From the NCBI GenBank assembly GCA_044356325.1, contig JBIKWJ010000003.1, forward strand, positions 36,749 to 100,748: DNA of 64,000 bases. Reading direction: 5' to 3'. Within the stretch, counting starts at the first letter, position 1; the number at the start of each line of letters is the position of its first letter. Below are positions 2,107-38,320 of the stretch, one piece after another. The stretch is from Minisyncoccia bacterium. Lineage in GTDB: Bacteria; Patescibacteriota; Minisyncoccia; SW-4-49-11. Under the pieces are notes generated by a model, which was given only the letters and a program-made list of their open reading frames with translations, ran no database searches and was not told the DNA's origin. The translations under genes and the position numbers were made by a program.

Positions 2107-2502
2107 TTAACAATCAGCAGAAAGTTGGGCAAGATATTGCGCACTCAGAGAAAGTACCGGAATATCTTCAGAACAAGAAACACCACAGCAGTTGTACAGA
2201 GCAAAGTGAACACCCAAGTTGCTTTCACAGACTCTTCTCGAGATATCACATCCCAACAAACGGATGATCTCTTTTCCAACCGAGCCATTGGGATCGTGCC
2301 ATTGAATATCCGGAGAATTCATGGCAACGATTTCTTTGAGTCGGGCCAAGCCCAAATGCAAATCCACATGAAATGCTCTCCAAAGAGCTTGCTCTTGTTC
2401 CGTACGATTCAGCTCCAAAAAGTCAGGAGCAATCTCTCTGATCGAAGGGTAACTCATAGAGTCTCCAGAAAAATGAACAGGCATGATGAGTAATATACTC
2501 AC
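2107..2502 (-). CDS. Small Cys-containing hypothetical protein, last gene of the CooC-like / COG0523 operon
   Basis: Minus-strand ORF co-oriented and contiguous with the ATPase and GTPase genes. Contains CC..C and C..C pairs. The overlapping plus-strand ORF 2080..2493 is Arg/Ser-rich antisense junk. Confidence 0.4.
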   Translation of the reverse strand: MSILLIMPVHFSGDSMSYPSIREIAPDFLELNRTEQEQALWRAFHVDLHLGLARLKEIVAMNSPDIQWHDPNGSVGKEIIRLLGCDISRRVCESNLGVHFALYNCCGVSCSEDIPVLSLSAQYLAQLSADC

Positions 2503-2547
2503 CTCTTAATAATCAAAGGAAATTCACCCTTCATTATTAAAAGATAA

Positions 2548-3405
2548 TTACATTACTACTTTTTCTGCTCTCTTTGACTCAAAATATCTAAGTCGAGCCA
2601 ATGTATCAACTTTGATATATCGAGATTGTAGCTCACTCCAAATATCCTTTAAAGCTTGATTTGTATTACCATCCAATCCTTCAAAATTATATTCAGTGAT
2701 AGCTTCATCAATAGGAATTTCGCCTAATAAAATATCCTTATATTCTTGTTTTATCTGATGATATAAATCATTATCTCGAGGTTTATTTAATATTCCATAA
2801 AATGGGATATCTAATTTTGCTGCAAGTACTCGTAATTGCTCGAATACTTTTTTACTATTAATATGAGGCTCTACCACACCTACCAACATATCGACGCCAC
2901 TAAACAATCCAAAATGCAACATGTCAGCCCCCGCCACACCATCAATAATCACTTGATTATTTCCCTCATTTAATAATGGGAGATAAAATTTGAGAGGGGC
3001 AGAATGTCCATGAGCACACCGAGCACTATACAAAACATCTTCAGCCCCTAGCCCCACTACTTGCAAAGATAGATTATGATGAATTGGATAACTAATAGAT
3101 TGAGTGAATTCATCTGATGGCTGAAAACTAAATTGAGGTAAAATCCTATCTTCAAGAACAATACGAGACCATTTAGAATCTTGTTCTAGACCGACTTTAT
3201 ACTGAAAATCACTATGGGCTCGGTGGAATGTTTGTGTGTCATCTTTAACCTCAAATCCAAGAATGCTAGCCAAATCCATATTATGATCAGCATCAATCGC
3301 AAGTACTGAGTATATTCGAGCAAGATACATACTCAATAGCCATGAAGTTGTACTTTTCCCACTACCACCTTTTCCTACAATAGCAATTTTCATATCACCA
3401 AACAC
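2548..3405 (-). CDS. MinD/ParA/CooC-family P-loop ATPase (metal-centre maturation type)
   Basis: N-terminal deviant Walker A KIAIVGKGGSGKST and AIDAD motif. Overlaps the upstream GTPase gene by 16 nt. Confidence 0.6.
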   Translation of the reverse strand: MFGDMKIAIVGKGGSGKSTTSWLLSMYLARIYSVLAIDADHNMDLASILGFEVKDDTQTFHRAHSDFQYKVGLEQDSKWSRIVLEDRILPQFSFQPSDEFTQSISYPIHHNLSLQVVGLGAEDVLYSARCAHGHSAPLKFYLPLLNEGNNQVIIDGVAGADMLHFGLFSGVDMLVGVVEPHINSKKVFEQLRVLAAKLDIPFYGILNKPRDNDLYHQIKQEYKDILLGEIPIDEAITEYNFEGLDGNTNQALKDIWSELQSRYIKVDTLARLRYFESKRAEKVVM

Positions 3406-4469
3406 TTATCTAATGACTCTACAATAGCTTTTTTATCCATATCAGCTCCAATAAAGACAATTTTCTGTTCACCCTCAATCTCCCCACTCTTAGATTTACT
3501 CCAATATCCATAGGGGTCAAGATTAATAATATTTCCTGCTTGAGACCATAATAAGGCAGTCGTGAGATCAGAATTATCCCAAGCAAATCCCTTAGAGCGA
3601 ACAACCCCTTTTAATGTCCCATTTTGTAATAATTCCATCAACTTTTGTCTATCAAAAGGTTTTTTAGACTCATATACAAAACTACTAATACCATATTCTT
3701 CTGTTTCTGGAGTATGTTCACCTCTCATTTCCTTGAGCCATCCCATATTCTGAGAAGCTTTATCAAAATCAAATAGTCCGGTATTAAGAATTTGATCAAG
3801 AGTAATATCCCCTTTCACCGCCTCAATAATCCGAGCATCGGGATTAAGCTTAGTTACAATACCTCGAATAGTACCCACAGTTCCCTTATCCACCAAATCC
3901 ACTTTAGACAATACAATCACATCAGCAAATTCAATTTGATCTGTAAGAAGTCCCACAATGGTTCGGGTATCTTCTTCCCCAAGAGATTCATCAGTATCTT
4001 TAAGCTGATCTTCTGAGGCAAGATAATTCATAAAATTAGCCGTATCTACCACCGTCACCATGGTATCCAATCGTGCAAAGTTAGATAAAATATCTCCAGA
4101 CTCATCATCAAAGGTAAATGTTTCCGCAATAGGCAATGGTTCAGATATTCCCGTAGATTCAATCACTAGATAATCAAATCGATTTTCTTGAGCTAATTTC
4201 TTCACCTCCACCAATAAATCTTCCCGCAATGTACAACAAATACATCCATTACTGAGCTCAACCAGTTTTTCTTCGGTCTTACTCAGAGAAACCTCATTAT
4301 TAGCCACCAATTCCGCATCAATATTCACATCAGACATATCATTCACAATCACCGCAACCTTAAGACCCTGCCTATTTTTAAGAATAGCATTAAGAAGAGT
4401 AGTTTTCCCACTACCCAAAAATCCAGATAAGACCGTCACCGGTAAACGATGAGATTGAAACTCTAACAT
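3390..4469 (-). CDS. COG0523 (CobW/ZigA/YeiR) family metallochaperone GTPase
   Basis: GFLGSGKTTLLN P-loop and the CICCT metal-binding motif characteristic of COG0523, with a CobW C-terminal-like domain. Confidence 0.8.
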   Translation of the reverse strand: MLEFQSHRLPVTVLSGFLGSGKTTLLNAILKNRQGLKVAVIVNDMSDVNIDAELVANNEVSLSKTEEKLVELSNGCICCTLREDLLVEVKKLAQENRFDYLVIESTGISEPLPIAETFTFDDESGDILSNFARLDTMVTVVDTANFMNYLASEDQLKDTDESLGEEDTRTIVGLLTDQIEFADVIVLSKVDLVDKGTVGTIRGIVTKLNPDARIIEAVKGDITLDQILNTGLFDFDKASQNMGWLKEMRGEHTPETEEYGISSFVYESKKPFDRQKLMELLQNGTLKGVVRSKGFAWDNSDLTTALLWSQAGNIINLDPYGYWSKSKSGEIEGEQKIVFIGADMDKKAIVESLDKCLVI

Positions 4470-4518
4470 ACCAAGATAACTATTATTGTATCATCCTAGT
4501 ATACCCTAATCCTTCCTA

Positions 4519-4539
4519 TATTGCAAATCATTTGCAATA
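4519..4539. promoter_or_regulatory. Perfect 10-1-10 palindrome TATTGCAAATcATTTGCAATA, candidate Zur/Fur-family operator
   Basis: Exact inverted repeat seen in the sequence, 50 bp upstream of the COG0523 GTPase start codon. COG0523 genes are typically Zur-regulated. Confidence 0.4.
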
Positions 4540-4549
4540 TTTTGTATTT

Positions 4550-14056: not shown

Positions 14057-14148
14057 TATATTTGTATTTAATATTATCATTTTCAGGGGATATTTTTCAT
14101 TCCACAACTCAAATATGATATACTATAATAGTACCTTGTCAAAAAATA

Positions 14149-14712
14149 ATGATTAATATGCAGGGTTTGTTTGAAATGTTTCGTAAGACTGATATCAATT
14201 TTAGTTTATGGGGAAGAGGAGAGGGCGCTCCAACCTTAACCCATCTTCTTGATGAAATCAATAGAGGCGAATGTAATCTTACATCTCAAGGTGGGCAAAT
14301 TATCCGTAATATTGCTATTGTTAATACCGCCATATTCTTCTTTGAGAGCAGGCAACTATTTCTTCAAAGCTCACAACAAAACTTATATTCATTTAGTAAT
14401 ATTAATATCACCTCAGATGCTTCTACCTCAATTAGAGTCAACTCTGGTGTACTTCCTTGTGAAGCTACTCAAAAGTTCCTTAACACAGATCCATTTAACA
14501 TTAATTTAACACCTGAGCAGTTAATATCAAGACATCGAACTTATCAATTCATTCCTTCGGTCGAATATCCAGGGATTAGGGATAGAATAATAGTCCATAG
14601 ATTTGAATGCTATCTCAACCCAAAGCAATATCGTCCCGATGGACATCTCCATATTACATCTCAGAGTGTTTCTCAATATCATTGGGTACCTATCCCCTCT
14701 CAGCCAGTTTAG
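14149..14712 (+). CDS. Hypothetical protein
   Basis: 187-aa ORF followed by its own terminator. Confidence 0.4.
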   Translation: MINMQGLFEMFRKTDINFSLWGRGEGAPTLTHLLDEINRGECNLTSQGGQIIRNIAIVNTAIFFFESRQLFLQSSQQNLYSFSNINITSDASTSIRVNSGVLPCEATQKFLNTDPFNINLTPEQLISRHRTYQFIPSVEYPGIRDRIIVHRFECYLNPKQYRPDGHLHITSQSVSQYHWVPIPSQPV

Positions 14713-14733
14713 CGACTGGCTTTTTTCTTTTTT
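14702..14733 (+). terminator. Rho-independent terminator
   Basis: AGCCAGT-ttagcg-ACTGGCT hairpin plus TTTTTTCTTTTTT. Confidence 0.6.
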
Positions 14734-14770
14734 ATATATATACTCCCTTATGTTATACTAAAGATAGTTA

Positions 14771-15514
14771 TTGAACCTTACCATGATCTATCCTGCCCCG
14801 AAAACTTTTTCCCTGATTATTCTTGATATGGATAAAATTTATCGGAGAACTAATCTTAAGCAATTTTTACAGAGCCTACCCGCCCAATATTGCATTCTAC
14901 TCAATGCCACTCATCGAGATATCGAGAGTATTAACAATATATATAGAGTGGCTACACATTTCATTCACCGACCCCGTTCCTGCGTAGTATTGTCTTATAA
15001 AGAAAAGTTACAATATGCAGTTCATCCTCCTCATGTAAATTGGGATAATATTGATAATAATCCCTGCCTGCATATACAAATTCAAGGTGTGAATTTGTTA
15101 CTTGCATATCTTGATCTCCATAGCTCGAGGAAAAGAAGAAAGCTTTTAGAGAATCTTGAGACAGGACATTTCAAGGATTATAAGGGAAAAGAATTAGATA
15201 TACATCTCCTAATCACCTATCTTGATACAAAGATCGCAATAGAGCCAGATATACTTACAACTAGGTATCGTTGGCAATATGTAGAGGCAGATAATAATCA
15301 GGATTCATTTATGGTCTCATCCTTTCATATCCTAGCTAATGTTGAAATAACAGATATACAATACCCTGAAACTGTCGATATATTAGAAGATGAGCAGCTC
15401 CGCATACCACCCTCAGCAGGATATATAGCCTATATCCCCTGTCTTCCGGGATGGAAAATAGATCATCTAAATATTTGCTCGCAGCTCGATCATTTTCCTA
15501 ATACCGTGTCTTAG
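14771..15514 (+). CDS. Hypothetical protein
   Basis: 247-aa ORF followed by a strong terminator. Confidence 0.4.
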   Translation: MNLTMIYPAPKTFSLIILDMDKIYRRTNLKQFLQSLPAQYCILLNATHRDIESINNIYRVATHFIHRPRSCVVLSYKEKLQYAVHPPHVNWDNIDNNPCLHIQIQGVNLLLAYLDLHSSRKRRKLLENLETGHFKDYKGKELDIHLLITYLDTKIAIEPDILTTRYRWQYVEADNNQDSFMVSSFHILANVEITDIQYPETVDILEDEQLRIPPSAGYIAYIPCLPGWKIDHLNICSQLDHFPNTVS

Positions 15515-15548
15515 CCACTCCCCCTACGGAGTGGCTTTTTTCTTTTTT
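15513..15548. terminator. Bidirectional rho-independent terminator
   Basis: AGCCACTCC-ccctac-GGAGTGGCT hairpin plus TTTTTTCTTTTTT. Sits between convergent genes. Confidence 0.7.
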
Positions 15549-16276: not shown

Positions 16277-16556
16277 ATATTATGATAAATTCTTACTCCT
16301 ATTGTATCATAAAGATTATATTTTATGCAATTTGTGTACTTCTTCCTCCTAACTCCCAATAACACAATCAGCAATATCCCTAACCCAAAAAAATATTATA
16401 AAGATATATACCTTGTAACCATACACTTAATACATTCGCTCCTTTGATAATATTTCCGAATCCTGGAACAAATAAAGCAAAGATTCCAAGTATGAATATG
16501 CTAAAGGAAATAATTAATAAAATATTAAGGATTTGAGTTAATGATTTCATATAAGA

Positions 16557-16940
16557 TTAAATTTGATTATAATTCAGAATTTTTTTAATTAAAATTGTAT
16601 TCAACCCAATATATATTAATATAGATATCAATAATCCAACCATATTCCAATTTCCTCCTAAATACGAGAGCAGATACTTTATTTGTACAAAGCCATATGT
16701 CCAAGAAAGTATTATAGCTAAAGCTAATACACCTCCTTGTAGCTTGTTTTTTACACTAGTCACTAGTGTAAATATAATTTGGAATATATATATTCCAAGT
16801 GTAAATAGTTGTATTAATAGCATTATATTAATCTCATTAAATGCAAACTCATATCTATTAATGAGATATATAGAAATAATATTAATAGGCATCAGTATAG
16901 CTATTAATATTATATTAGTAATCAAATATTTTTTATTCAT
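16557..16940 (-). CDS. Small polytopic membrane protein
   Basis: 127 aa with four TM helices. Member of the six-gene array downstream of the lectin protein. Confidence 0.4.
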   Translation of the reverse strand: MNKKYLITNIILIAILMPINIISIYLINRYEFAFNEINIMLLIQLFTLGIYIFQIIFTLVTSVKNKLQGGVLALAIILSWTYGFVQIKYLLSYLGGNWNMVGLLISILIYIGLNTILIKKILNYNQI

Positions 16941-16947
16941 AATACAA

Positions 16948-17355
16948 TTATTTATTTCTTTGAGTATAGTAATTTAGCATTATAGTTATAAGAGCTAATA
17001 ATACCCATAATCCATACCACTTATTAGATAGTACAAGATCTGCTAATAGCCTAGAGTTTTCACTAAAATCCTTTACTATATATAAGCTAGCTGATATCAC
17101 AGTGATACTATTTAATATCCAATAATATCGATACCATTTACTTTTTTTATCACTAAATACCCCAAATAATGCTGGGATAAATACTAAAAGAATAATGTAT
17201 GGCAAAGATATAGTAAGAAGAAATCCAATATCTCCAATAGCACCCAATTTAAATTGAAATAAACTATTACCTGTAATATTACCAATTAATAATACCCCCG
17301 ACCCCAATGCCATAAGATAAATTAGTAGATATTTAGTAAAGAAGATTTTTTTCAT
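16948..17355 (-). CDS. Small polytopic membrane protein
   Basis: 135 aa with four TM helices. Overlaps the next gene by 4 nt. Confidence 0.4.
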   Translation of the reverse strand: MKKIFFTKYLLIYLMALGSGVLLIGNITGNSLFQFKLGAIGDIGFLLTISLPYIILLVFIPALFGVFSDKKSKWYRYYWILNSITVISASLYIVKDFSENSRLLADLVLSNKWYGLWVLLALITIMLNYYTQRNK

Positions 17356-17690
17356 ATTCTACTGCTTGCTACTTTATAAGCTATAATCCCATTAACCAAT
17401 ATATATAGTATAGTAACTATTACATTAGTCCAGATACCCAATCTTAGTGCTGGTAAATAAATACTCAAGATATAATATATAATTGCTAAGATTAGGCTCA
17501 AAAATACAAAATTCTTCCCCTCATATTGTTTTAGTAATATCACAATGAATTCTATGAAATAAATAATGAGTGTGAATATAAATATCTGCATTCCCCAAGC
17601 AATATTATCGAAAAGAGAAAAATACCAGACTACTAATACTCCTAAAGAGGTTATACTTAATATATTAAGTTGTATGATTAATTTATTCAT
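17352..17690 (-). CDS. Small polytopic membrane protein
   Basis: 112 aa with three to four TM helices. Confidence 0.4.
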   Translation of the reverse strand: MNKLIIQLNILSITSLGVLVVWYFSLFDNIAWGMQIFIFTLIIYFIEFIVILLKQYEGKNFVFLSLILAIIYYILSIYLPALRLGIWTNVIVTILYILVNGIIAYKVASSRI

Positions 17691-17733
17691 AAAAATTTTG
17701 GAATATTAAGTATTGCTCTTATTATATTACTAT

Positions 17734-17976
17734 TTATCTATTTTTAGAAATATATTTAAAAACATTGTCTATGAGATATACAATTATACCAACCAGCCCC
17801 AAAATGAGTAGTCCTCCCAAAATATACATATTAATACCAAATATATAATTAAACCAAGTAGCCTCCTCCCCAGCCTTGATATTTGAAAGATTAAATATCA
17901 TCCAAGCTAAACTTACTATAAATAGTATTCCTGAGAGACTACATATTATTACATATATTCCAATAATTTTTCTCAT
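17734..17976 (-). CDS. Small membrane protein
   Basis: 80 aa with two TM helices. Confidence 0.35.
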   Translation of the reverse strand: MRKIIGIYVIICSLSGILFIVSLAWMIFNLSNIKAGEEATWFNYIFGINMYILGGLLILGLVGIIVYLIDNVFKYISKNR

Positions 17977-17995
17977 ATAGAAGTAGCAAATGATC

Positions 17996-18457
17996 TTATT
18001 TTACTATCAAAAACAATCCTACAGTACCTACTATCTGCACTATATATAATAGTGTAAACTGTAATCGTGTTTTTGTACATTCACACAACAGAATACTCCC
18101 CAATCCAATGCTAAATATATAATATATTAATATTGCATTCCCATCATAACTCAAGAAAATAACCAAAACAAAAGCTAAAATCATACATAAGAACCCTATA
18201 CCTAAAGACTGATAAAATGATAAATAATATTGCCTTGGCAAAATACACTTACTTATCATTAATTGAGTATATAAGATCAACACACCCACCAACATATACA
18301 GTTCCGTAATATATTGCCAATCAATATAGGTGGAAATAAGAATACCCCCAATAAACCAAAGCCAAGTTAGCATTATCAAGATAATACCATTTCCAAACGC
18401 ATAAAGTATAGATTGTTTTATACCTGGATGAATTAAGATTGATTGATTAAGTTTCAT
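17996..18457 (-). CDS. Small polytopic membrane protein
   Basis: 153 aa with four to five TM helices. Confidence 0.4.
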   Translation of the reverse strand: MKLNQSILIHPGIKQSILYAFGNGIILIMLTWLWFIGGILISTYIDWQYITELYMLVGVLILYTQLMISKCILPRQYYLSFYQSLGIGFLCMILAFVLVIFLSYDGNAILIYYIFSIGLGSILLCECTKTRLQFTLLYIVQIVGTVGLFLIVK

Positions 18458-18465
18458 ATTGAAAC

Positions 18466-18906
18466 TTAATATAAAGTACTCCCTACAATCACCAAAGCTA
18501 AGGAGAGGTGGACAACAAATAGTATCATCACATACGTGTTGCTCTTAATAATGAGAGAAAATATTGATAGCGGAATTATTAATACAATGTAATAATATAA
18601 GGATGAGATAATAGGGCTGCTCTTTCCTAAGAGATACATTGTAATCACTACAATCTCTATGATTAATATAAGGTATAACGGAGACGAGACAATATTTTTT
18701 TTCATTCTTATTCTCTGCATCCATAGTAATAATCCAAATACTAGACCTAATATTCCTAAATAGATAATGGTAATATTAAAGTTGGGTTCTGTTATTTTAC
18801 CCCAAATGTTAGACTGTATTATAAAAGAACCTATTATTAATATTGTAATGATAATAATATTAATAATAGAAAGTCGTATTATAGAGAGTATAGATTGTTT
18901 CTTCAT
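18466..18906 (-). CDS. Small polytopic membrane protein
   Basis: 146 aa with four TM helices. Confidence 0.4.
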   Translation of the reverse strand: MKKQSILSIIRLSIINIIIITILIIGSFIIQSNIWGKITEPNFNITIIYLGILGLVFGLLLWMQRIRMKKNIVSSPLYLILIIEIVVITMYLLGKSSPIISSLYYYIVLIIPLSIFSLIIKSNTYVMILFVVHLSLALVIVGSTLY

Positions 18907-18927
18907 AAACTTATGTATAGATTAATA

Positions 18928-20697
18928 CTAAAGACTATTATACAAAATACCAGGGACATAACAACTAGTAGAGTAGCTAAAGGATCTCTTTATATCCCCC
19001 GTATATTTATTCCACATATCGGTAGAATATTTAGCACAATTATTTGCACACCAACTATATGACTGATTAACATATGAAGGTTTGTATTTAATATATAAAT
19101 TATCAACCTCATATCCCCTTAGATATTTAATCTCATCATACATTTGCTTTGATATAATAATATCTTTATACCTATACCCTGTGTTAATATTATGCTTAGC
19201 TATTTTCCAATCAGCACCACCCTTACCTTCATCGACATTAATATGATTGCCAGTTCCAATATTATTAATACGGTCCCAGTCATTAATATCATTGGTATCT
19301 TTATCGGGCCAAAAACTAAAGGTATTTGTAATTCCCCGTCCTGTTCTTCCTACTGCAGTCAATACGTGACCTTGATATCCCCCTATAACTGGAAATTGAG
19401 TGTTTGAAGCATATATCCTCAAATAGAATCTCTGTCCATTAAAATCATACTCCCCTGCATTAAAGCGTTGATTTTGACCGACATGGCATTGCCAGAGATG
19501 AATTCGACTTCCAAAGGTCACCCCAGCACTCGCGTCAAGACAATAGTCCTGATTGAATTTTGGTCTTATGGTACCATCTGATCTTACTACAAATTTCTGA
19601 TTATTACCACCATGACAATCCCATAAGTGCACCCTATCTCCATTATCATACTGTCCATTTGCCATATCTACATCTATACATTTCTCTACTCCTGGCTTAC
19701 CTACAAAGCGTATTTCTGAGCGCGCATCCACAAAACGGAATTGCTTTGGACCATCATTTGACCTTCCCCATAATTTAAAAGTTTGCCCATTCACTGCATT
19801 GGCATTATCTACATCCCAGATATAATCCCAATTTGATCTATTATATATAACCAGATTATTCACTGAATTAGATGAATCTCCCCAAGCAAAAACCTCTGGT
19901 ATTTTGATTAATTGTTTAGCTTTTTCTTTGAATGAAAGTTTAGGCTTTGAGTTATTCTTTAGAAATTCCTCTGATTTCTTCCTCTCTTCTAATATCTCAT
20001 TATTGAGTTTATCTATGCTTTCTTGACTTGGATATAATATATCCATTAACTCTTTATTACTGGTGGTTACTGCTGTTTGGGTTTTTGTTTTTATTGTATC
20101 TACTTGAGATTTTTTATTCCTTATTTTCTTATCCCAATTCCCTTTATTTTTTTGTATTTTTTGTTCTTGTTTAGCTATATTTTCATCTAATTTAGTAATA
20201 GCTTTTTGTATTTCGGTATTTTTCTCTTTCCCTTCTTTTAATTGCTTTCTTTTTTCTCTCTCATTATCTAATCCCTCATTCTTACCTCGATAATAATTAA
20301 TCTCTGTAATTTTAGAGTCATCAATAGTGCTATTATAGCTAATACCTCTTATCTTTTGCCCTGTTTTTATTTGACTGATTGGGATTATTTCTTCTCCAAT
20401 TATTGCTTTTGGCTCTTCACCACTATTGTCTTTAAGATTGACTATAGTATTAATATTTTCTAATTCTTCTTTATTAATTCCATCTCCTGTAAATGTTATT
20501 TCATTATATACTTGATTATATTTAGGGTTTTTACTGGGATCAATATATTCATTGAGTCCTTGCTCTTTGAGAGTTTTATTATTACTTTGGGCTATTGTCT
20601 TTGCAATTATTGTCCCCTTATAAATAAAAAAGATGGCTATCAAAGCCACTCCTAAAACCACCGCTCCCTTATAATATTTCTTATGACTATTCTCCAT
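18928..20697 (-). CDS. Membrane-anchored secreted protein with a ricin-B (beta-trefoil) lectin domain and an unknown C-terminal domain
   Basis: N-terminal TM anchor and a K/E-rich coiled-coil region. Three QxW-type repeats (KLWGRSNDGPKQF, HLWDCHGGNNQKF, HLWQCHVGQNQRF). About 190-aa Cys-containing C-terminal domain. Confidence 0.6.
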   Translation of the reverse strand: MENSHKKYYKGAVVLGVALIAIFFIYKGTIIAKTIAQSNNKTLKEQGLNEYIDPSKNPKYNQVYNEITFTGDGINKEELENINTIVNLKDNSGEEPKAIIGEEIIPISQIKTGQKIRGISYNSTIDDSKITEINYYRGKNEGLDNEREKRKQLKEGKEKNTEIQKAITKLDENIAKQEQKIQKNKGNWDKKIRNKKSQVDTIKTKTQTAVTTSNKELMDILYPSQESIDKLNNEILEERKKSEEFLKNNSKPKLSFKEKAKQLIKIPEVFAWGDSSNSVNNLVIYNRSNWDYIWDVDNANAVNGQTFKLWGRSNDGPKQFRFVDARSEIRFVGKPGVEKCIDVDMANGQYDNGDRVHLWDCHGGNNQKFVVRSDGTIRPKFNQDYCLDASAGVTFGSRIHLWQCHVGQNQRFNAGEYDFNGQRFYLRIYASNTQFPVIGGYQGHVLTAVGRTGRGITNTFSFWPDKDTNDINDWDRINNIGTGNHINVDEGKGGADWKIAKHNINTGYRYKDIIISKQMYDEIKYLRGYEVDNLYIKYKPSYVNQSYSWCANNCAKYSTDMWNKYTGDIKRSFSYSTSCYVPGILYNSL

Positions 20698-20867
20698 ATA
20701 ATTTACATATGTTAAACACCTATATGAAGATAGTATACTTTTTGTTATTAACTGTCAAATTGTGGATAAGTAGATACCAAATAAAATGCTCCCCTCAAAG
20801 TACGAAGAGAAGAAATTGAATAAAAGTAAGGCTCTTAATTGTAAGTCTTCAGGAGAGAGTGTATTTT

Positions 20868-20972
20868 TTGTCCCCCTTCGGAGGGGGCCGCCTGAAAGGC
20901 GGGGGTGGATAAAATATAAACTTGAAGTCTATCCTCCTCCGCCCTGCGGGCACCTCCCCCAAGGGAGGACAA
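20868..20972. repeat. GC-rich mosaic hairpin repeat block R1
   Basis: CCCCCTTCGGAGGGGG, GCCGCCTGAAAGGCGG and CCTCCCCCAAGGGAGGAC modules shared with other blocks. Confidence 0.7.
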
Positions 20973-21066: not shown

Positions 21067-23445
21067 CTATTTCTTCCCCCAAGACCAAATTTTTTGAATC
21101 CCTAGCCATACAAAACCTAATATTGCGAGGATAATGAGTCCATAGGATATAATCTCAGCAATTACTACATTCCGAGATTTATGATAGCCAAATTCACATT
21201 CTGAATTAGCGGGTAATATTGCCGATTGAGTGAGCCCATTACGCTCAGGTTTGGTATCAATAGTTTTCTCTCCACAAGTCCATTTGAATTGAGGATTATA
21301 AACCTCTGCCACATTCACATTTTGATCCTTATCACCTGTTCTGACAATAGGATTATAGGAAAATGTTGCCACTACCTCATCTCCCGAGACATATTCTTGT
21401 ACCTCAGGCACTTCATAAATACGATATCCCTCTATAGTAGATTTCACCCATTTTAATTCTGATTTCCTCTCTAGAAGATAACAAGCGACCAGATTTCGCT
21501 TTTCCTTGAATCTATCATCACAATAATTATCGTAGTTCGTTGTCACAATATATTTAACATTATTCTCTCGTAGTATAGGAACCCATTCTGGCACAGAATA
21601 TTGAGGTAATATTTTTTCAAAATTATTAAATACTCTCTGATTAATAGCCATAGCTCGCGTATGATTCCAAGCTCCATCATCATCCCGAGTCAAATCGAGA
21701 ATACGATATTCCTGACTAGGATTAAGATTATCGACTAATTTTTTAGCTCTCTCAAAGCCAGGATAATGAGCCTCCATAGAAGGTACCGTATAGAATGTAT
21801 ACATTTTTAGCCCCTGATACCGAGCTGAAACTAATATCATTATCAGGAATACAGGAATAGAAAATACCCCCACCATACGCCATTGCTTTGACTTCATCTC
21901 GCTCACCACATAATACCAAGTAAGCCCACCCAAGATAGCAATACCAAGAGCAAATATCATCATAAATCTACCCGGAGTACGTAGCCCCCAAAAATAAGGG
22001 AAATACTCATTCAATACCCGATATAACCAAGACTTGCTATACCCCAGAGCCAAGTATCCCGCAATACCAGAACCAATCCAAAGAGGAAGTATATATTTGT
22101 TTCGCCTAAACCACAGAATAGATATAATACCAAAACTTGTCCAAATCAACCAAATAATACGATTATCTAGAGGAATATCCTTGAGCGAATATCCAATTTC
22201 CCCCGATACAATACCCTCTTTATTTTGAAGATATACCAGTTCTGTAATAGTAGGAGAATAATAATCTTTTACAAAAGGAACAATACGCTCCTTAGTCTGA
22301 GATTCATCCAATAAACCTGTATTGGCTCGATACCCAAAGAATGTCGGCACCAAAACATGTAGCCCCAATAAACACACAATAATCCATACCCCAGAGAATA
22401 ATCCCAAACGCCGCATTAATTCTCTCTGAGACTTATAATCAATCAAAGCAATACCCAACATAATAATTATCAGAGGAATAACATTGCTAAATACCATAGT
22501 AATCCCTGAAATCAATGTACTCAAAGCCACAATAATACCCAATACCAAAGTCCGATGTATAAGCCCAAACCAATTTGGCTTATGTCTCATCAACCATATC
22601 CAATCATTTACAATCCAAGGAAGCAAAGCATAAGCAATACCGAATTCCACCACACCATTTAATACCGAGAGATAAAATGGATTCAATATATATATAAGCG
22701 TAGCGAGAATTTGAACCCCAATACCACGACTACTTTTTGTCACCTGAGGGAGAATAGCTCTCATCAACTTTATAATACCCACAGCCGCAATACCAATACT
22801 CAAAAGCTGATGAATTTTTATCCCGAGATAAAAGTCCCCCGCCAAGAATGAAAGAATATGAGTGTATAATACCGCCCAATTACTCGTCAATATATTCCAA
22901 GCAAATCCAAATTGATAAAACCATCCAATCCAAAATGTCAAAAAAGCATCAAGATGAACAACTCCTCCCCCCATATCCAAAAAACTATTATGAGGAATAC
23001 CATCTTTAAAGAAATACTTCCCTGACACATAAATAAGAGATATACCCAATATCCCAATAATCCATATATAAATAGGGATTTTGGTGATTTGTTTGTGCCC
23101 CCAATTACCCGCTTTTTCTAAAGAACTCTCTAATCCTTTCCATCGCCATCGCTGCCCACTCCATATTTCACTAAACACCATAATACACATAAGATAAAAA
23201 ACATTCACCGCAAAAGCTTCAGCCAATTTATCTAATTTGAGAGACAAGGCAATAGGAGCGAGTACAAGAAAGGTAATCGCCCCATACCCTGCATATTTAC
23301 CATCTAATCGAAATAATATTACCACTCCAATATATGCCCAGATTAAAGATGACCATATACTTCCCAAAAGCAAAAAAGCAATCACAAAAATTGCAATAAC
23401 AATTGCTAATTTCACCCAATCTAGACCAGTAATTTCTGATTTCAT
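21067..23445 (-). CDS. Large polytopic membrane protein with a C-terminal soluble domain (GT-C-like glycosyltransferase candidate)
   Basis: 792 aa with at least 14 TM helices over about 520 aa, then a roughly 270-aa hydrophilic domain. Confidence 0.55.
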   Translation of the reverse strand: MKSEITGLDWVKLAIVIAIFVIAFLLLGSIWSSLIWAYIGVVILFRLDGKYAGYGAITFLVLAPIALSLKLDKLAEAFAVNVFYLMCIMVFSEIWSGQRWRWKGLESSLEKAGNWGHKQITKIPIYIWIIGILGISLIYVSGKYFFKDGIPHNSFLDMGGGVVHLDAFLTFWIGWFYQFGFAWNILTSNWAVLYTHILSFLAGDFYLGIKIHQLLSIGIAAVGIIKLMRAILPQVTKSSRGIGVQILATLIYILNPFYLSVLNGVVEFGIAYALLPWIVNDWIWLMRHKPNWFGLIHRTLVLGIIVALSTLISGITMVFSNVIPLIIIMLGIALIDYKSQRELMRRLGLFSGVWIIVCLLGLHVLVPTFFGYRANTGLLDESQTKERIVPFVKDYYSPTITELVYLQNKEGIVSGEIGYSLKDIPLDNRIIWLIWTSFGIISILWFRRNKYILPLWIGSGIAGYLALGYSKSWLYRVLNEYFPYFWGLRTPGRFMMIFALGIAILGGLTWYYVVSEMKSKQWRMVGVFSIPVFLIMILVSARYQGLKMYTFYTVPSMEAHYPGFERAKKLVDNLNPSQEYRILDLTRDDDGAWNHTRAMAINQRVFNNFEKILPQYSVPEWVPILRENNVKYIVTTNYDNYCDDRFKEKRNLVACYLLERKSELKWVKSTIEGYRIYEVPEVQEYVSGDEVVATFSYNPIVRTGDKDQNVNVAEVYNPQFKWTCGEKTIDTKPERNGLTQSAILPANSECEFGYHKSRNVVIAEIISYGLIILAILGFVWLGIQKIWSWGKK

Positions 23446-24745: not shown

Positions 24746-25816
24746 TCACCCAATACTTTGAAAATAATTATTCACAGCAAATTCATATTGCTCCATGAAT
24801 ATCTTTTTAAAATAAGTAATATTATTAGTCTCATAAAATAATATACTAGCCTTTTTATACTCAGCCTCAGAAACCCCTCTATAAGACAACGGGGTATAAT
24901 CACAAGCAATCAACATAGCATTAGATACAAGTCTAGCAGTCCTTTTATTCCCATCCTCAAAACCCTGTATATATGACAATAAAATCAAGCTAAAAAATGC
25001 CTTCTCAAACACATTAGAAGTCCCATTCACCAATTTCACCATAGACTTTATAGCCTCCTCAATATGAAACATATTATCTATTGGCCTATAATTAGTTCCC
25101 ACAATCCCCACTGGAGACTTTCTCAAATTATGAGTAATATTCAAATTTTTAACCAAAATCTGATGAGCTTTTTCAATAAAAGCCTGCTTCAAAACTTTAA
25201 AACTCTTTTTATGAGCTATCACAAAATCAAAAGCCTCCTTATGATTAAGGATCATTTGAGTCTCCTCCTGACTTTTACCAACCGCACTTTGATGATTTAC
25301 AATCAAAGACTCCGTATCCAAAAGAGAATAAGTGTTTCCCTCAATCTGAGAAGATTTCCACGCAAACTCAATAATTATCCTTTCAAACTCCTTATGCTTA
25401 ATCACATCACTATCTATACCCTCAAGATTACTAACAAAAGTATTATGCAAACCCTCCAAATAACTCATTTCCTCCTCCGTAAAAACTGAAGTCTCCGCCA
25501 AAAGTTTAAAAACATCAAAATTAAATTTACTATTAACTAACCTCTCATCCTGAGGAATAACAAAATACTCCTCTACATCTATAGGCCTCAAAAGAGCATA
25601 GCCGGGAGCCAAATTATACTCCACACCTCGCCCAGCACCAGTCTGCATCAAATATCCAAGCTCACATAATAATTGCAAATCCCTGACAATAGTCACGCGA
25701 GACACCTCCTCAGCCAAAAATTCCATTATATCCAAAACCGCCCCACTACTATGAGACTCAAAAAACTCTATAATTCTAAGTTGGCGAACATTAAGACCAA
25801 TATTATTCTGCTTCAT
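24746..25816 (-). CDS. Fic-family protein with N-terminal wHTH and a degenerate active-site motif
   Basis: Fic-fold region with QGFEDGNKRTAR in place of canonical HPFx(D/E)GNGRxxR. N-terminal HTH-like segment. Confidence 0.55.
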   Translation of the reverse strand: MKQNNIGLNVRQLRIIEFFESHSSGAVLDIMEFLAEEVSRVTIVRDLQLLCELGYLMQTGAGRGVEYNLAPGYALLRPIDVEEYFVIPQDERLVNSKFNFDVFKLLAETSVFTEEEMSYLEGLHNTFVSNLEGIDSDVIKHKEFERIIIEFAWKSSQIEGNTYSLLDTESLIVNHQSAVGKSQEETQMILNHKEAFDFVIAHKKSFKVLKQAFIEKAHQILVKNLNITHNLRKSPVGIVGTNYRPIDNMFHIEEAIKSMVKLVNGTSNVFEKAFFSLILLSYIQGFEDGNKRTARLVSNAMLIACDYTPLSYRGVSEAEYKKASILFYETNNITYFKKIFMEQYEFAVNNYFQSIG

Positions 25817-33416: not shown

Positions 33417-33742
33417 TCCCCTGAGGGAGGGGGTGAGAGCAGTCCACACCCGGCACTTTGTGACACCCTTCCACCTACGGTCGACAAGCTGCCAGCGAGG
33501 CCTGCCTGCGGTAGGCAGAGACAAAAAATACCATCCACCCCGTCAGACATAGCCTGCCACCCCTCAAGAGGGGAATTTTTAGGGCAAGTTGCAAATTACA
33601 TCCACCCTCCCCCGTCGCAAATGGGATTTGCTCCTGTCCTCCTCCGTCACCTACGGTGACACCTCCCCCAAGGGAGGACAAGAGTGCAAGTTGCAAAATT
33701 AAATACAGGCGACTGAAAGGTCGCCCCTACGAGAAAGTAGGA
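33417..33742. repeat. GC-rich mosaic hairpin repeat block R6
   Basis: Modules A, B, C, D and F. Confidence 0.75.
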
Positions 33743-34840: not shown

Positions 34841-35030
34841 CATCCACCCTCCCCCTTCGGGTACTCCCTCCTAAGGGAGACAAAAGCTCAAGTAACAAAA
34901 TCCACCCCGTCCAGCGAAGCTGTCCACCCCTCAAGAGGGGAATTTAGTACAAAATACAGTCCTCCTCCGTCACCTACGGTGACACCTCCCCCAAGGGAGG
35001 ACAGAAGGGAAGAAGCTCAGTCCACCCTAT
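34841..35030. repeat. GC-rich mosaic hairpin repeat block R7
   Basis: Modules C and D. Confidence 0.75.
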
Positions 35031-38095: not shown

Positions 38096-38320
38096 CTGTC
38101 CACACCCACCACTAACGTGGTTCCCCCTCGCCAGCGAGGGACAAAAAGCTTTGTCCTCCCTTGGGGGAGGTGCCTGCAAGGCGGAGGAGGATATACCTTA
38201 CCAGCTACCTCCTCCGTCGCAAACAGGATTTGCTCCTGTGAAACCTCACGGTTTCCCAAACCTTCCTACACGGGAAAACTCCCGTTTTCCCGACCCCTTT
38301 CCCGGAGGCAGAAGCTTACC
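38096..38320. repeat. GC-rich mosaic hairpin repeat block R9
   Basis: Modules A, D and G, plus the gcttaccagctaccgcctccg module that extends into the 3' end of the DUF2207 gene. Confidence 0.7.

Follow-up and report, generated by a model that had tools for sequence, protein, structure and literature searches.

Organization of the lectin gene and the small genes behind it

The stretch of DNA analysed here, 64,000 nt of contig JBIKWJ010000003.1 from a Minisyncoccia bacterium (assembly GCA_044356325.1, positions 36,749 to 100,748; hereafter the window), carries a gene for a 589-aa protein with a ricin-B-type lectin domain, directly followed on the same strand by an array of small genes for polytopic membrane proteins. 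An earlier reading of the letters alone (the original prediction) had noticed this arrangement and likened it to a toxin gene with orphan-immunity genes; the arrangement itself was borne out by profile matches, open reading frames (ORFs) and signs of selection, and we refer to the large gene as the putative toxin gene. All focal genes lie on the minus strand (Table 1), and the window is AT-rich (27–42% G+C).

Table 1. Features of the lectin gene, its promoter and the downstream array (window positions; TM, transmembrane segments; AF2, AlphaFold2)
Feature	Position	Strand	Basis
Operon promoter, sigma-70-type: TTGACA, 17-nt spacer, TACTAT, then ~35-nt leader	20730..20758	-	Pattern scan and conservation
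Putative toxin gene, 589 aa: signal peptide, N-domain, ricin-B lectin, Cys/His hydrolase-like C-terminal domain	18928..20697	-	ORF, homologues, mosaic identity profile
Probable Sec signal peptide, aa 1 to ~36	20590..20697	-	By inspection
Conserved N-terminal domain, aa 45-265	19903..20565	-	AF2 model and conservation
Ricin-B-type beta-trefoil lectin domain, aa 266-414	19456..19902	-	Pfam PF00652 and PDB matches
C-terminal domain, aa 415-589: putative His444/Asn458/Cys554 hydrolase, TseH-like permuted papain/NlpC-P60 topology	18931..19455	-	AF2, conservation
Hypervariable tip, aa 530-589, including the putative catalytic-Cys helix; swapped cassette	18931..19110	-	Identity drop and breakpoint
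Island that varies against L001, the closest syntenic genome; DNA on both sides 92-96% identical	16554..19110	-	blastn breakpoints
w146, 146 aa, 4-5 TM, family F; proposed cognate immunity protein	18466..18906	-	Shares swapped segment with tip
w153, 153 aa, 4-5 TM, family t; proposed orphan immunity protein	17996..18457	-	First gene in L027/L028
w80, 80 aa, 2 TM, family B; proposed orphan immunity protein	17734..17976	-	First gene in L003, L019, L011
w112, 112 aa, 4 TM, family E; proposed orphan immunity protein, usually paired with family B	17352..17690	-	Lectin-toxin arrays
w135, 135 aa, membrane protein, family A; proposed orphan immunity protein; 4-nt overlap with w112	16948..17355	-	First gene in L007, L009
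w127, 127 aa, 4 TM, family u	16557..16940	-	Same array in L030, L031
w56, 56 aa, about two TM, family K; seventh array member	16380..16550	-	Conservation, dN/dS

The 589-aa protein has 27 full-length homologues, all from metagenomes or from metagenome-assembled genomes (MAGs) of Paceibacterota, Paceibacteria or Parcubacteria, one of them labelled Saccharibacteria. Its N-terminus, which the original prediction took for a membrane anchor, consists of a Lys-rich n-region and a 16-aa hydrophobic core, and inspection of the homologues revealed small-x-small motifs (ASA-N, ALA-N or VKA-V, the hyphen marking the presumptive cleavage point) just ahead of a conserved GLNEYIDPS, so that the segment is probably a cleavable Sec signal peptide rather than a permanent anchor. 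The N-terminal domain that follows is the most conserved part of the protein; its AF2 model (pLDDT 86.6, pTM 0.74) combines an alpha/beta module and a long helical hairpin, and it matched no PDB fold (best E=0.42). The lectin domain is recognized by Pfam Ricin_B_lectin (E=1e-15; 58.5 bits against a cutoff of 29) and by CBM13 and ricin-B lectins in the PDB, whose matches span aa 295–413 with E values down to 1e-13, and it is closest to actinobacterial CBM13 modules. Its three beta-trefoil repeats are as predicted, although they carry Q-x-F (PKQFRF, NQKFVV, NQRFNA) instead of the Q-x-W named originally; the Gln and aromatic columns, and pairs of Cys, are conserved across homologues.

Downstream, the array extends to position 16380 and comprises seven genes, not six: the six first described hold their coordinates and their counts of two to five transmembrane segments, and are joined by w56, only 6 nt beyond w127, which has homologues in the arrays of related loci L010 and L029 and is called as a gene in L030–L033. 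Gaps from the putative toxin gene through the first six small genes are 21, 8, 19, 43, -4 and 7 nt, a packing as tight as originally described, although just one junction, w112/w135, overlaps rather than several. The seven proteins have GRAVY values of 0.74–1.47 (0.74–1.41 for the first six), Kyte-Doolittle scans assign each about two to five transmembrane segments, and none belongs to a Pfam, NCBIfam, PHROG or PADLOC family. In profile-profile comparisons they formed seven families, none related to another (best hhalign probability 21%), in keeping with the prediction that they are unrelated, and an expansion of membrane proteins within the lineage, which it offered as an alternative, fits poorly because the genes are not paralogues. 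Hidden paralogy among the small-protein families was considered and rejected, the hhalign links being only of the fragment or chimera type. By tblastn of all small-protein families against the window, no further copies were found outside the array; all the putative toxins, searched in the same way, returned the single toxin gene and no remnants of its 3' end.

A sigma-70-type promoter precedes the putative toxin gene, and TTGACA-N17-TATACTAT/TATAGTAT with a leader of ~35 nt before the ATG is kept in 18 of 18 aligned loci, including some with putative toxins of just ~37% identity, a pattern suggestive of either a handle for recombination or a regulatory leader that has been conserved. The conserved region (window 20698–20772, minus strand) was seen in L001, L003, L005, L007, L008, L010–L016, L019, L022, L023, L027 and L029, and in L015, L016 and L022 the 64 nt upstream are 85–87% identical to the window while the encoded putative toxins are only ~37% identical as proteins. 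A pattern scan found no terminator-like site between the array genes, its sole minus-strand site falling within the putative toxin gene.

Mosaic C-terminal ends and variable arrays among related loci

We compared the window with ~19 non-redundant loci, drawn without exception from metagenomes or Paceibacteria/Parcubacteria MAGs. Wherever a locus includes downstream DNA, 1–7 small hydrophobic genes follow on the same strand, starting -23 to +21 nt from the stop codon of the putative toxin gene, and more than 13 unrelated families of small genes occur among these arrays. The loci occupy four or more chromosomal sites, for instance beside type I restriction-modification genes, mraZ or the gene for Ile-tRNA synthetase, indicating that the adjacency of the small genes to the putative toxin gene is not inherited synteny. 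Fourteen homologous pairs of small genes across loci gave dN/dS values of 0.13–0.51 (0.24 for w80, 0.14–0.39 for w112 and 0.21 for w56), and the same array was called by independent gene callers in other samples; we conclude that the small ORFs are real genes and not artefacts of AT-rich DNA.

The putative toxins are mosaics. Compared with its closest relative, P0002, the window protein is 93–99% identical over the N-terminal 265 aa, 91% in the lectin and 76% in the core of the C-terminal domain, dropping to 31% over the last ~60 aa (hereafter the tip), whereas P0015 is 80–90% identical at the N-terminus but only 48% in the lectin and 36% in the C-terminal domain. The drop is sharp in DNA, too: by blastn, nucleotide homology to L001, L027 and L028 stops at one and the same base, window position 19111, just after the conserved KY[ML]RGY codons. 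Homology to L001 resumes at 16553, delimiting an island of 2557 nt (tip plus six genes) that corresponds to 621 nt in L001 (tip plus one 145-aa gene). Homology to L028 resumes at 18466, already in front of a w153-w80-w112 block that is 96.4% identical at the nucleotide level, so that with respect to L028 the window exchanged exactly the tip and w146. In L027/L028, w153 is itself the first gene after a putative toxin with a different tip.

The window site, between a gene for a 792-aa membrane protein and a family 2 glycosyltransferase (GT2) gene, is common to four genomes, whose arrays differ in both size and combination: F-t-B-E-A-u-K in the window, F in L001, C in L008 and t-B-E-F-A-B'-E' in L028, that is, seven, one, one and seven genes. 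In L016, remnants of toxin 3' ends of ~20–25 codons (positions 3983–4097 and 4476–4544; ...IWWYNEDSENKGFPDSQCSKGY*, ...IWWYNKQQGPYSQCSKGY) directly precede the second and third small genes (...IWWYN..QCSKGY*); they are displaced fragments of toxin tips. L022 contains two lectin-toxin genes in tandem (25–1794 and ~2367–3953) with one small membrane gene between them, the second putative toxin being 97% identical to its counterpart in L015.

The type of tip is linked to the family of the first gene downstream. Among pairs of loci with the same tip, 10 of 16 share the first downstream family, a number reached in 0 of 20000 label permutations in a test that ignores shared ancestry. All four type II putative toxins are followed by family C and those of cluster 13 by family D, three tips of the cluster to which the window belongs (L003, L019, L011) by family B, and the putative toxins of L007 and L009 by family A. 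The families found in first position recur deeper in other arrays: C in L009, G in L005, D in L007 and L011, and B, E and A in the window. A strict mapping of one tip to one immunity gene was rejected as too strong, the correspondence between tip type and first gene not being one-to-one.

Family E (w112), the one searched database-wide for its context, forms 14 clusters in 5.8 billion proteins and lies behind a lectin-toxin gene in every context with enough flanking DNA; for this family, the occurrence elsewhere without the lectin gene that would have spoken against the original prediction was not seen. The w146 protein has no word-index homologue in the same 5.8 billion proteins and is 30% identical to the first downstream gene product of the syntenic L001, and w127 has no relative among the ~19 loci compared. 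Family B (~80 aa, 2 TM) directly precedes family E (~110 aa, 4 TM) in the window (17352–17976), L003, L029 and, twice, L028, and the two may form a two-protein unit; B occurs alone in L011 and E alone in L010. A small gene of L003 (10295–10600) is a chimera in which an N-terminal half of family A (w135) is joined to a C-terminal half of family F (the 145-aa gene of L001), which indicates recombination between array genes. The family F gene, intact in L028 (144 aa), is a degraded remnant of 52 aa in L027.

One might suppose instead that the large gene encodes a housekeeping envelope enzyme next to which fast-evolving, lineage-specific membrane proteins happen to lie, with no role in conflict and with relaxed constraint in a variable region. 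The region between the conserved flanking genes does vary among relatives, small AT-rich genomes are rich in orphan hydrophobic ORFs, and w146 and w127 have almost no detectable relatives, but the dN/dS values point to purifying selection on the small genes, which moreover adjoin the putative toxin gene in all ~19 independent loci, at no fewer than four chromosomal sites. Nor does this explanation account for breakpoints that are sharp and shared, without gradual decay, or for putative catalytic residues (see below) that stay invariant while the surrounding tip diverges, and we consider it improbable.

The C-terminal domain and the surroundings of the operon

The C-terminal domain was correctly predicted to contain Cys and to lack a known family, although it spans 175 aa, with three Cys, rather than about 190. 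Four diverse domain sequences gave no Pfam or NCBIfam match even at E<=10, and the domain profile found nothing among PDB sequences. When 1.84 billion representative proteins were searched exhaustively with an HMM, only 57 representative clusters were retrieved (E<=0.001); in nearly all of these the domain is C-terminal, and nearly always it stands behind a ricin-B domain. Across 63 aligned domains, His30 of the domain (aa 444) is invariant and Cys140 (aa 554) is present in 57, five of the remainder being gaps; Asp82, Asn65, Asp53 and Asn44 are nearly invariant, the last (aa 458) in 55 of 63.

In the AF2 model of the domain (pLDDT 80, pTM 0.81), Cys140 is the first residue of a helix (140–152), His30 starts a strand (31–37) and Asn44 lies on the adjacent strand (41–48); as modelled, this is the arrangement of papain/NlpC-P60 enzymes in permuted, His-before-Cys order. 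The sole near-significant fold match in the PDB was TseH (6v98; E=0.046, probability 0.89, TM-score 0.50, 14% identity), and the spacing of the residues, with a polar residue 14 positions after the His and the Cys 110 after it, parallels TseH and Lnb. Profile searches thus return no family, and the predicted fold looks like that of a Cys/His hydrolase, not of an adhesin. The two further Cys of the domain co-occur or are jointly absent across homologues, which suggests a disulfide; together with the signal-peptide-like N-terminus and the lectin domain, this pairing suggests an extracellular location.

The domain family also has a branch without lectin (P0070, encoded at L034 5001–6179, and P0068, P0073, P0075 and P0076), whose members have an N-terminal transmembrane segment and, ahead of the Cys motif (SNCVAYS), ~70 inserted residues. 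The gene for P0070, the one member whose context was examined, adjoins a YbjQ_1 gene and has no small membrane gene downstream. This branch may represent a housekeeping relative of the putative toxin domain.

The layout, in which small proteins of two to four transmembrane segments are encoded behind a putative wall hydrolase that begins with a hydrophobic segment, also resembles a phage-derived lysis cassette, in which an endolysin-like enzyme with a signal-arrest-release N-terminus would be accompanied by holins and antiholins, and some related loci do lie near mobile or defence genes (Bro-N, T5orf172, RhuM, type I restriction-modification). Against this, the nine proteins scanned (eight of the locus and the 792-aa protein) had no PHROG match save one at chance level (E=0.008), a Foldseek search of a viral structure library was empty, and no phage structural or replication genes are nearby, the site being chromosomal, from the 792-aa gene to GT2, in four genomes. 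Nor are a polymorphic enzyme tip and as many as seven unrelated membrane genes typical of such a cassette, and we judge this origin very improbable. A PADLOC scan of the locus proteins was likewise without a match; the empty PHROG and PADLOC results argue against both a phage-lysis and an anti-phage-defence role.

The neighbours at the window site are genes of envelope glycans (GT2, a flippase and a VCA0040-like gene). The gene for the 792-aa polytopic membrane protein (21067–23445, minus strand) lies directly upstream of the operon and is kept immediately upstream of it in L001, L008, which has two copies, and L027/L028; its product has no Pfam, PHROG or PADLOC match. About 4 kb upstream, a gene for a Fic/DOC-family protein with a helix-turn-helix domain (24746–25816, minus strand) is also present in L001. 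Two plus-strand ORFs with no Pfam match (14149–14712 and 14771–15514) lie between the GT2 and polysaccharide flippase genes, within a second variable spot near the operon (14083–15545) where L008 and L027/L028 carry other or highly divergent DNA (71.5% identity or no match). Short GC-rich, hairpin-forming repeats, such as CCCCCTTCGGAGGGGG, CCGCCTGAAAGGCGG and CCTCCCCCAAGGGAGG, occupy the intergenic region upstream of the operon (20866–20972), with further copies in the window (33634–33681, 34960–35003 and 38151–38196) and in L005, L008, L009, L012, L016 and L027/L028; they resemble repetitive extragenic palindromes or terminators and have no Rfam match. Membership of the operon in the patescibacterial VanZ-2/ABC/peptidase operon (PMC12419801) was rejected, the ABC genes being 4–5 kb away and absent from non-syntenic loci.

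This setting bears on a further explanation, namely that a secreted or surface-exposed lectin-hydrolase of an epibiotic cell of the Candidate Phyla Radiation (CPR) binds and opens the envelope of its host, the small proteins being accessory (uptake, anchoring or regulation) and the variation tracking hosts. CPR bacteria are thought to be epibionts (PMC13622651), and the affinity of the lectin to actinobacterial modules, the envelope-glycan genes around the locus, the lack of adjoining small membrane genes in lectin-less relatives (in the one context examined) and the imperfect mapping between tip type and first gene would all suit an attack on a host. Such an attack, however, leaves unexplained why one enzyme gene is trailed by up to seven unrelated membrane genes, why the exchange takes in precisely the tip and the gene next to it, and why remnants of tips precede downstream small genes, and these three patterns are the standard signature of toxin-immunity cassettes (PMC3482391; Staphylococcus aureus TspA/TsaI, PMC9484751). 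We regard host attack as unlikely, if less so than the preceding alternatives.

A putative toxin-immunity operon and its known counterparts

A hypervariable toxin C-terminus with a sharp junction, a downstream gene that varies with it, and orphan genes and remnants are the marks of a polymorphic toxin-immunity system. The mosaic C-terminus, the shared breakpoints, the variable arrays, the linkage between tip and first gene and the tip remnants thus support the toxin plus orphan-immunity array advanced in the original prediction, and, judging from sequence comparison, we consider it fairly likely that this freshwater Paceibacteria (CPR) bacterium encodes a polymorphic toxin-immunity operon of a bacteriocin-like kind. 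What we infer is the toxicity of the large protein, its target, the protective role of the membrane proteins and which gene is cognate.

In such an operon, the one conserved promoter would drive the putative toxin gene and the seven small genes, and the product would be exported by Sec, as its probable signal peptide suggests. The ricin-B lectin would bind a surface glycan of a neighbouring cell, and the Cys/His domain (His444, Cys554 and probably Asn458) would act on a target located either in the wall or on the external side of the membrane, candidate substrates being a peptidoglycan peptide, a lipid-linked precursor, or an acyl group of a lipid or lipoprotein. A membrane-proximal substrate is attractive by analogy, because the immunity candidates are integral to the membrane and the permuted NlpC/P60 enzymes include lipid and lipoprotein acyltransferases. 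The last ~60 residues, including the putative catalytic-Cys helix, would form a cassette exchanged between strains by homologous recombination, with its 5' crossover point in the conserved KY[ML]RGY-coding region, and would move together with the gene immediately downstream. By this scheme w146 would be the cognate immunity protein and the six genes behind it orphan immunity genes, either left over from earlier cassettes or gained as a defence against competitors' toxins.

Several observations weigh against a toxin-immunity operon. Known toxins that hydrolyse the wall are usually countered by soluble or lipid-anchored immunity proteins, and it is difficult to see how small polytopic proteins, with their short loops, would neutralize a soluble enzyme. 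The tip of the window clusters with tips followed by family B, yet here w146, of family F, comes first, although a 7-residue insertion sets this tip apart from its cluster; and the permutation test for linkage, as noted, takes no account of common descent. The array of the window contains no tip remnants, its intergenic gaps being too short to hold any. The C-terminal domain has no profile match to NLPC_P60, LRAT, Peptidase_C92/C97 or DUF4105 and no sequence-profile link to PPPDE families, and the lectin-less relative without a small membrane gene, in the single context examined, implies that the domain fold is not intrinsically that of a toxin.

CPR/Patescibacteria make up a large share of bacterial diversity, and almost nothing is known of their competition or attack. 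If our interpretation is true, the locus would offer a compact and tractable antagonism system, made of one Sec-exported protein and small immunity genes, with a new cysteine-hydrolase-like toxin domain and more than a dozen new putative families of membrane immunity proteins. The sub-domain swap, an unusual route to diversity, could then reveal the enzyme surface recognized by the immunity protein, and the lectin may give a clue to the glycan on the target surface and hence to who fights whom in freshwater CPR communities. Cassettes matched by integral-membrane immunity proteins would further imply a substrate embedded in the membrane (lipid II, a lipoprotein or a phospholipid) and immunity exerted within the plane of the membrane, with no part for a soluble inhibitor. 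It is thus conceivable, though we hold it doubtful in this full form, that this is the first interbacterial toxin-immunity system in Paceibacteria, in which one enzyme fold with ~60-residue Cys cassettes and unrelated membrane partners acts on a membrane-embedded substrate and is countered in the membrane itself. In full-text searches of the literature, no system of this sort was seen to be described for Patescibacteria or Parcubacteria.

Among known systems, class III bacteriocins (lysostaphin, zoocin A) and colicin- or pesticin-type proteins combine a targeting module with a C-terminal envelope-degrading enzyme, and self-protection is encoded alongside. The putative toxin would be analogous to these as a secreted modular protein with a surface-targeting module and a C-terminal enzyme-like domain. 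Those proteins, however, rely on SH3b or other targeting domains and on M23, muramidase or nuclease toxin domains, and immunity to them is conferred by wall modification (Fem-like enzymes) or by soluble binding proteins, not by arrays of small membrane proteins.

Two enzymes resemble the C-terminal domain in the order of residues. TseH (VCA0285, PDB 6v98), a type VI secretion system (T6SS) effector of Vibrio cholerae, is an NlpC/P60-type cysteine hydrolase with a Glu81-His64-Cys172 triad (PMC11160734); it was reported as targeting peptidoglycan, and PMC11696984 describes its substrate as still enigmatic. As in TseH, the His comes first here, a polar residue follows 14–17 positions later and the Cys lies ~110 after the His at the N-terminus of a helix, and TseH is an antibacterial effector acting on the cell envelope, the role proposed here; unlike the window protein, TseH is delivered by a T6SS and has no lectin, and the putative third residue here is Asn rather than Glu, in a domain only 14% identical. 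The lipoprotein N-acyltransferase Lnb, which structurally matches TseH, has Asn66-His49-Cys148, and Lnb, LnsA and LRAT-like enzymes are permuted NlpC/P60 acyltransferases that act on lipids or lipoproteins at the membrane surface (PMC11160734). The His...Asn...Cys arrangement is as in Lnb, and action at the membrane surface would fit immunity proteins embedded in the membrane, although no DUF4105 or LRAT sequence match was found here and those enzymes are housekeeping and not polymorphic.

The closest functional analogue, by layout, would be the S. aureus type VII secretion system (T7SS) toxin TspA, a polymorphic toxin followed by a string of 2–16 polytopic TsaI immunity genes, with a toxin 3' fragment within the array (PMC9484751); the window likewise has seven membrane genes behind the putative toxin gene, and L016 has toxin-tip fragments. 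TsaI copies, however, are paralogues of one family (DUF443, 5 TM) whereas the families of the seven window genes are all different and unrelated, and TspA, a membrane-depolarising protein of the LXG type, is secreted by the T7SS, whereas here a Sec-type lectin is joined to a Cys/His hydrolase-like domain. LXG, WXG and DUF443 were all absent from the Pfam scan of the eight locus proteins, and the comparison with TspA/TsaI is one of analogy only.

The locus shares with the polymorphic toxin systems at large (CdiA-CT/CdiI, Rhs and colicin/pyocin-type cassettes; Zhang, Aravind et al. 2012, PMC3482391) a conserved N-terminal part, a hypervariable C-terminal end with conserved sequence at the crossover point, and a putative immunity gene directly downstream that is swapped with the toxin end, as well as orphans and displaced toxin-end remnants farther downstream. 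It differs from them in its apparent plain Sec export, without Pfam matches to type V, VI or VII secretion, Rhs/YD or LXG modules, in a swapped unit that is the last ~60 residues of one fold instead of a whole domain, in putative immunity proteins that are all small and polytopic yet from many unrelated families, and in its CPR host. The kind of system is therefore already known, and what is new is the toxin domain family, with no Pfam entry and 57 representatives, the N-terminal domain and all the families of small membrane proteins, as well as the combination of plain Sec export with a lectin, the sub-domain swap carrying the putative catalytic Cys and the host lineage.

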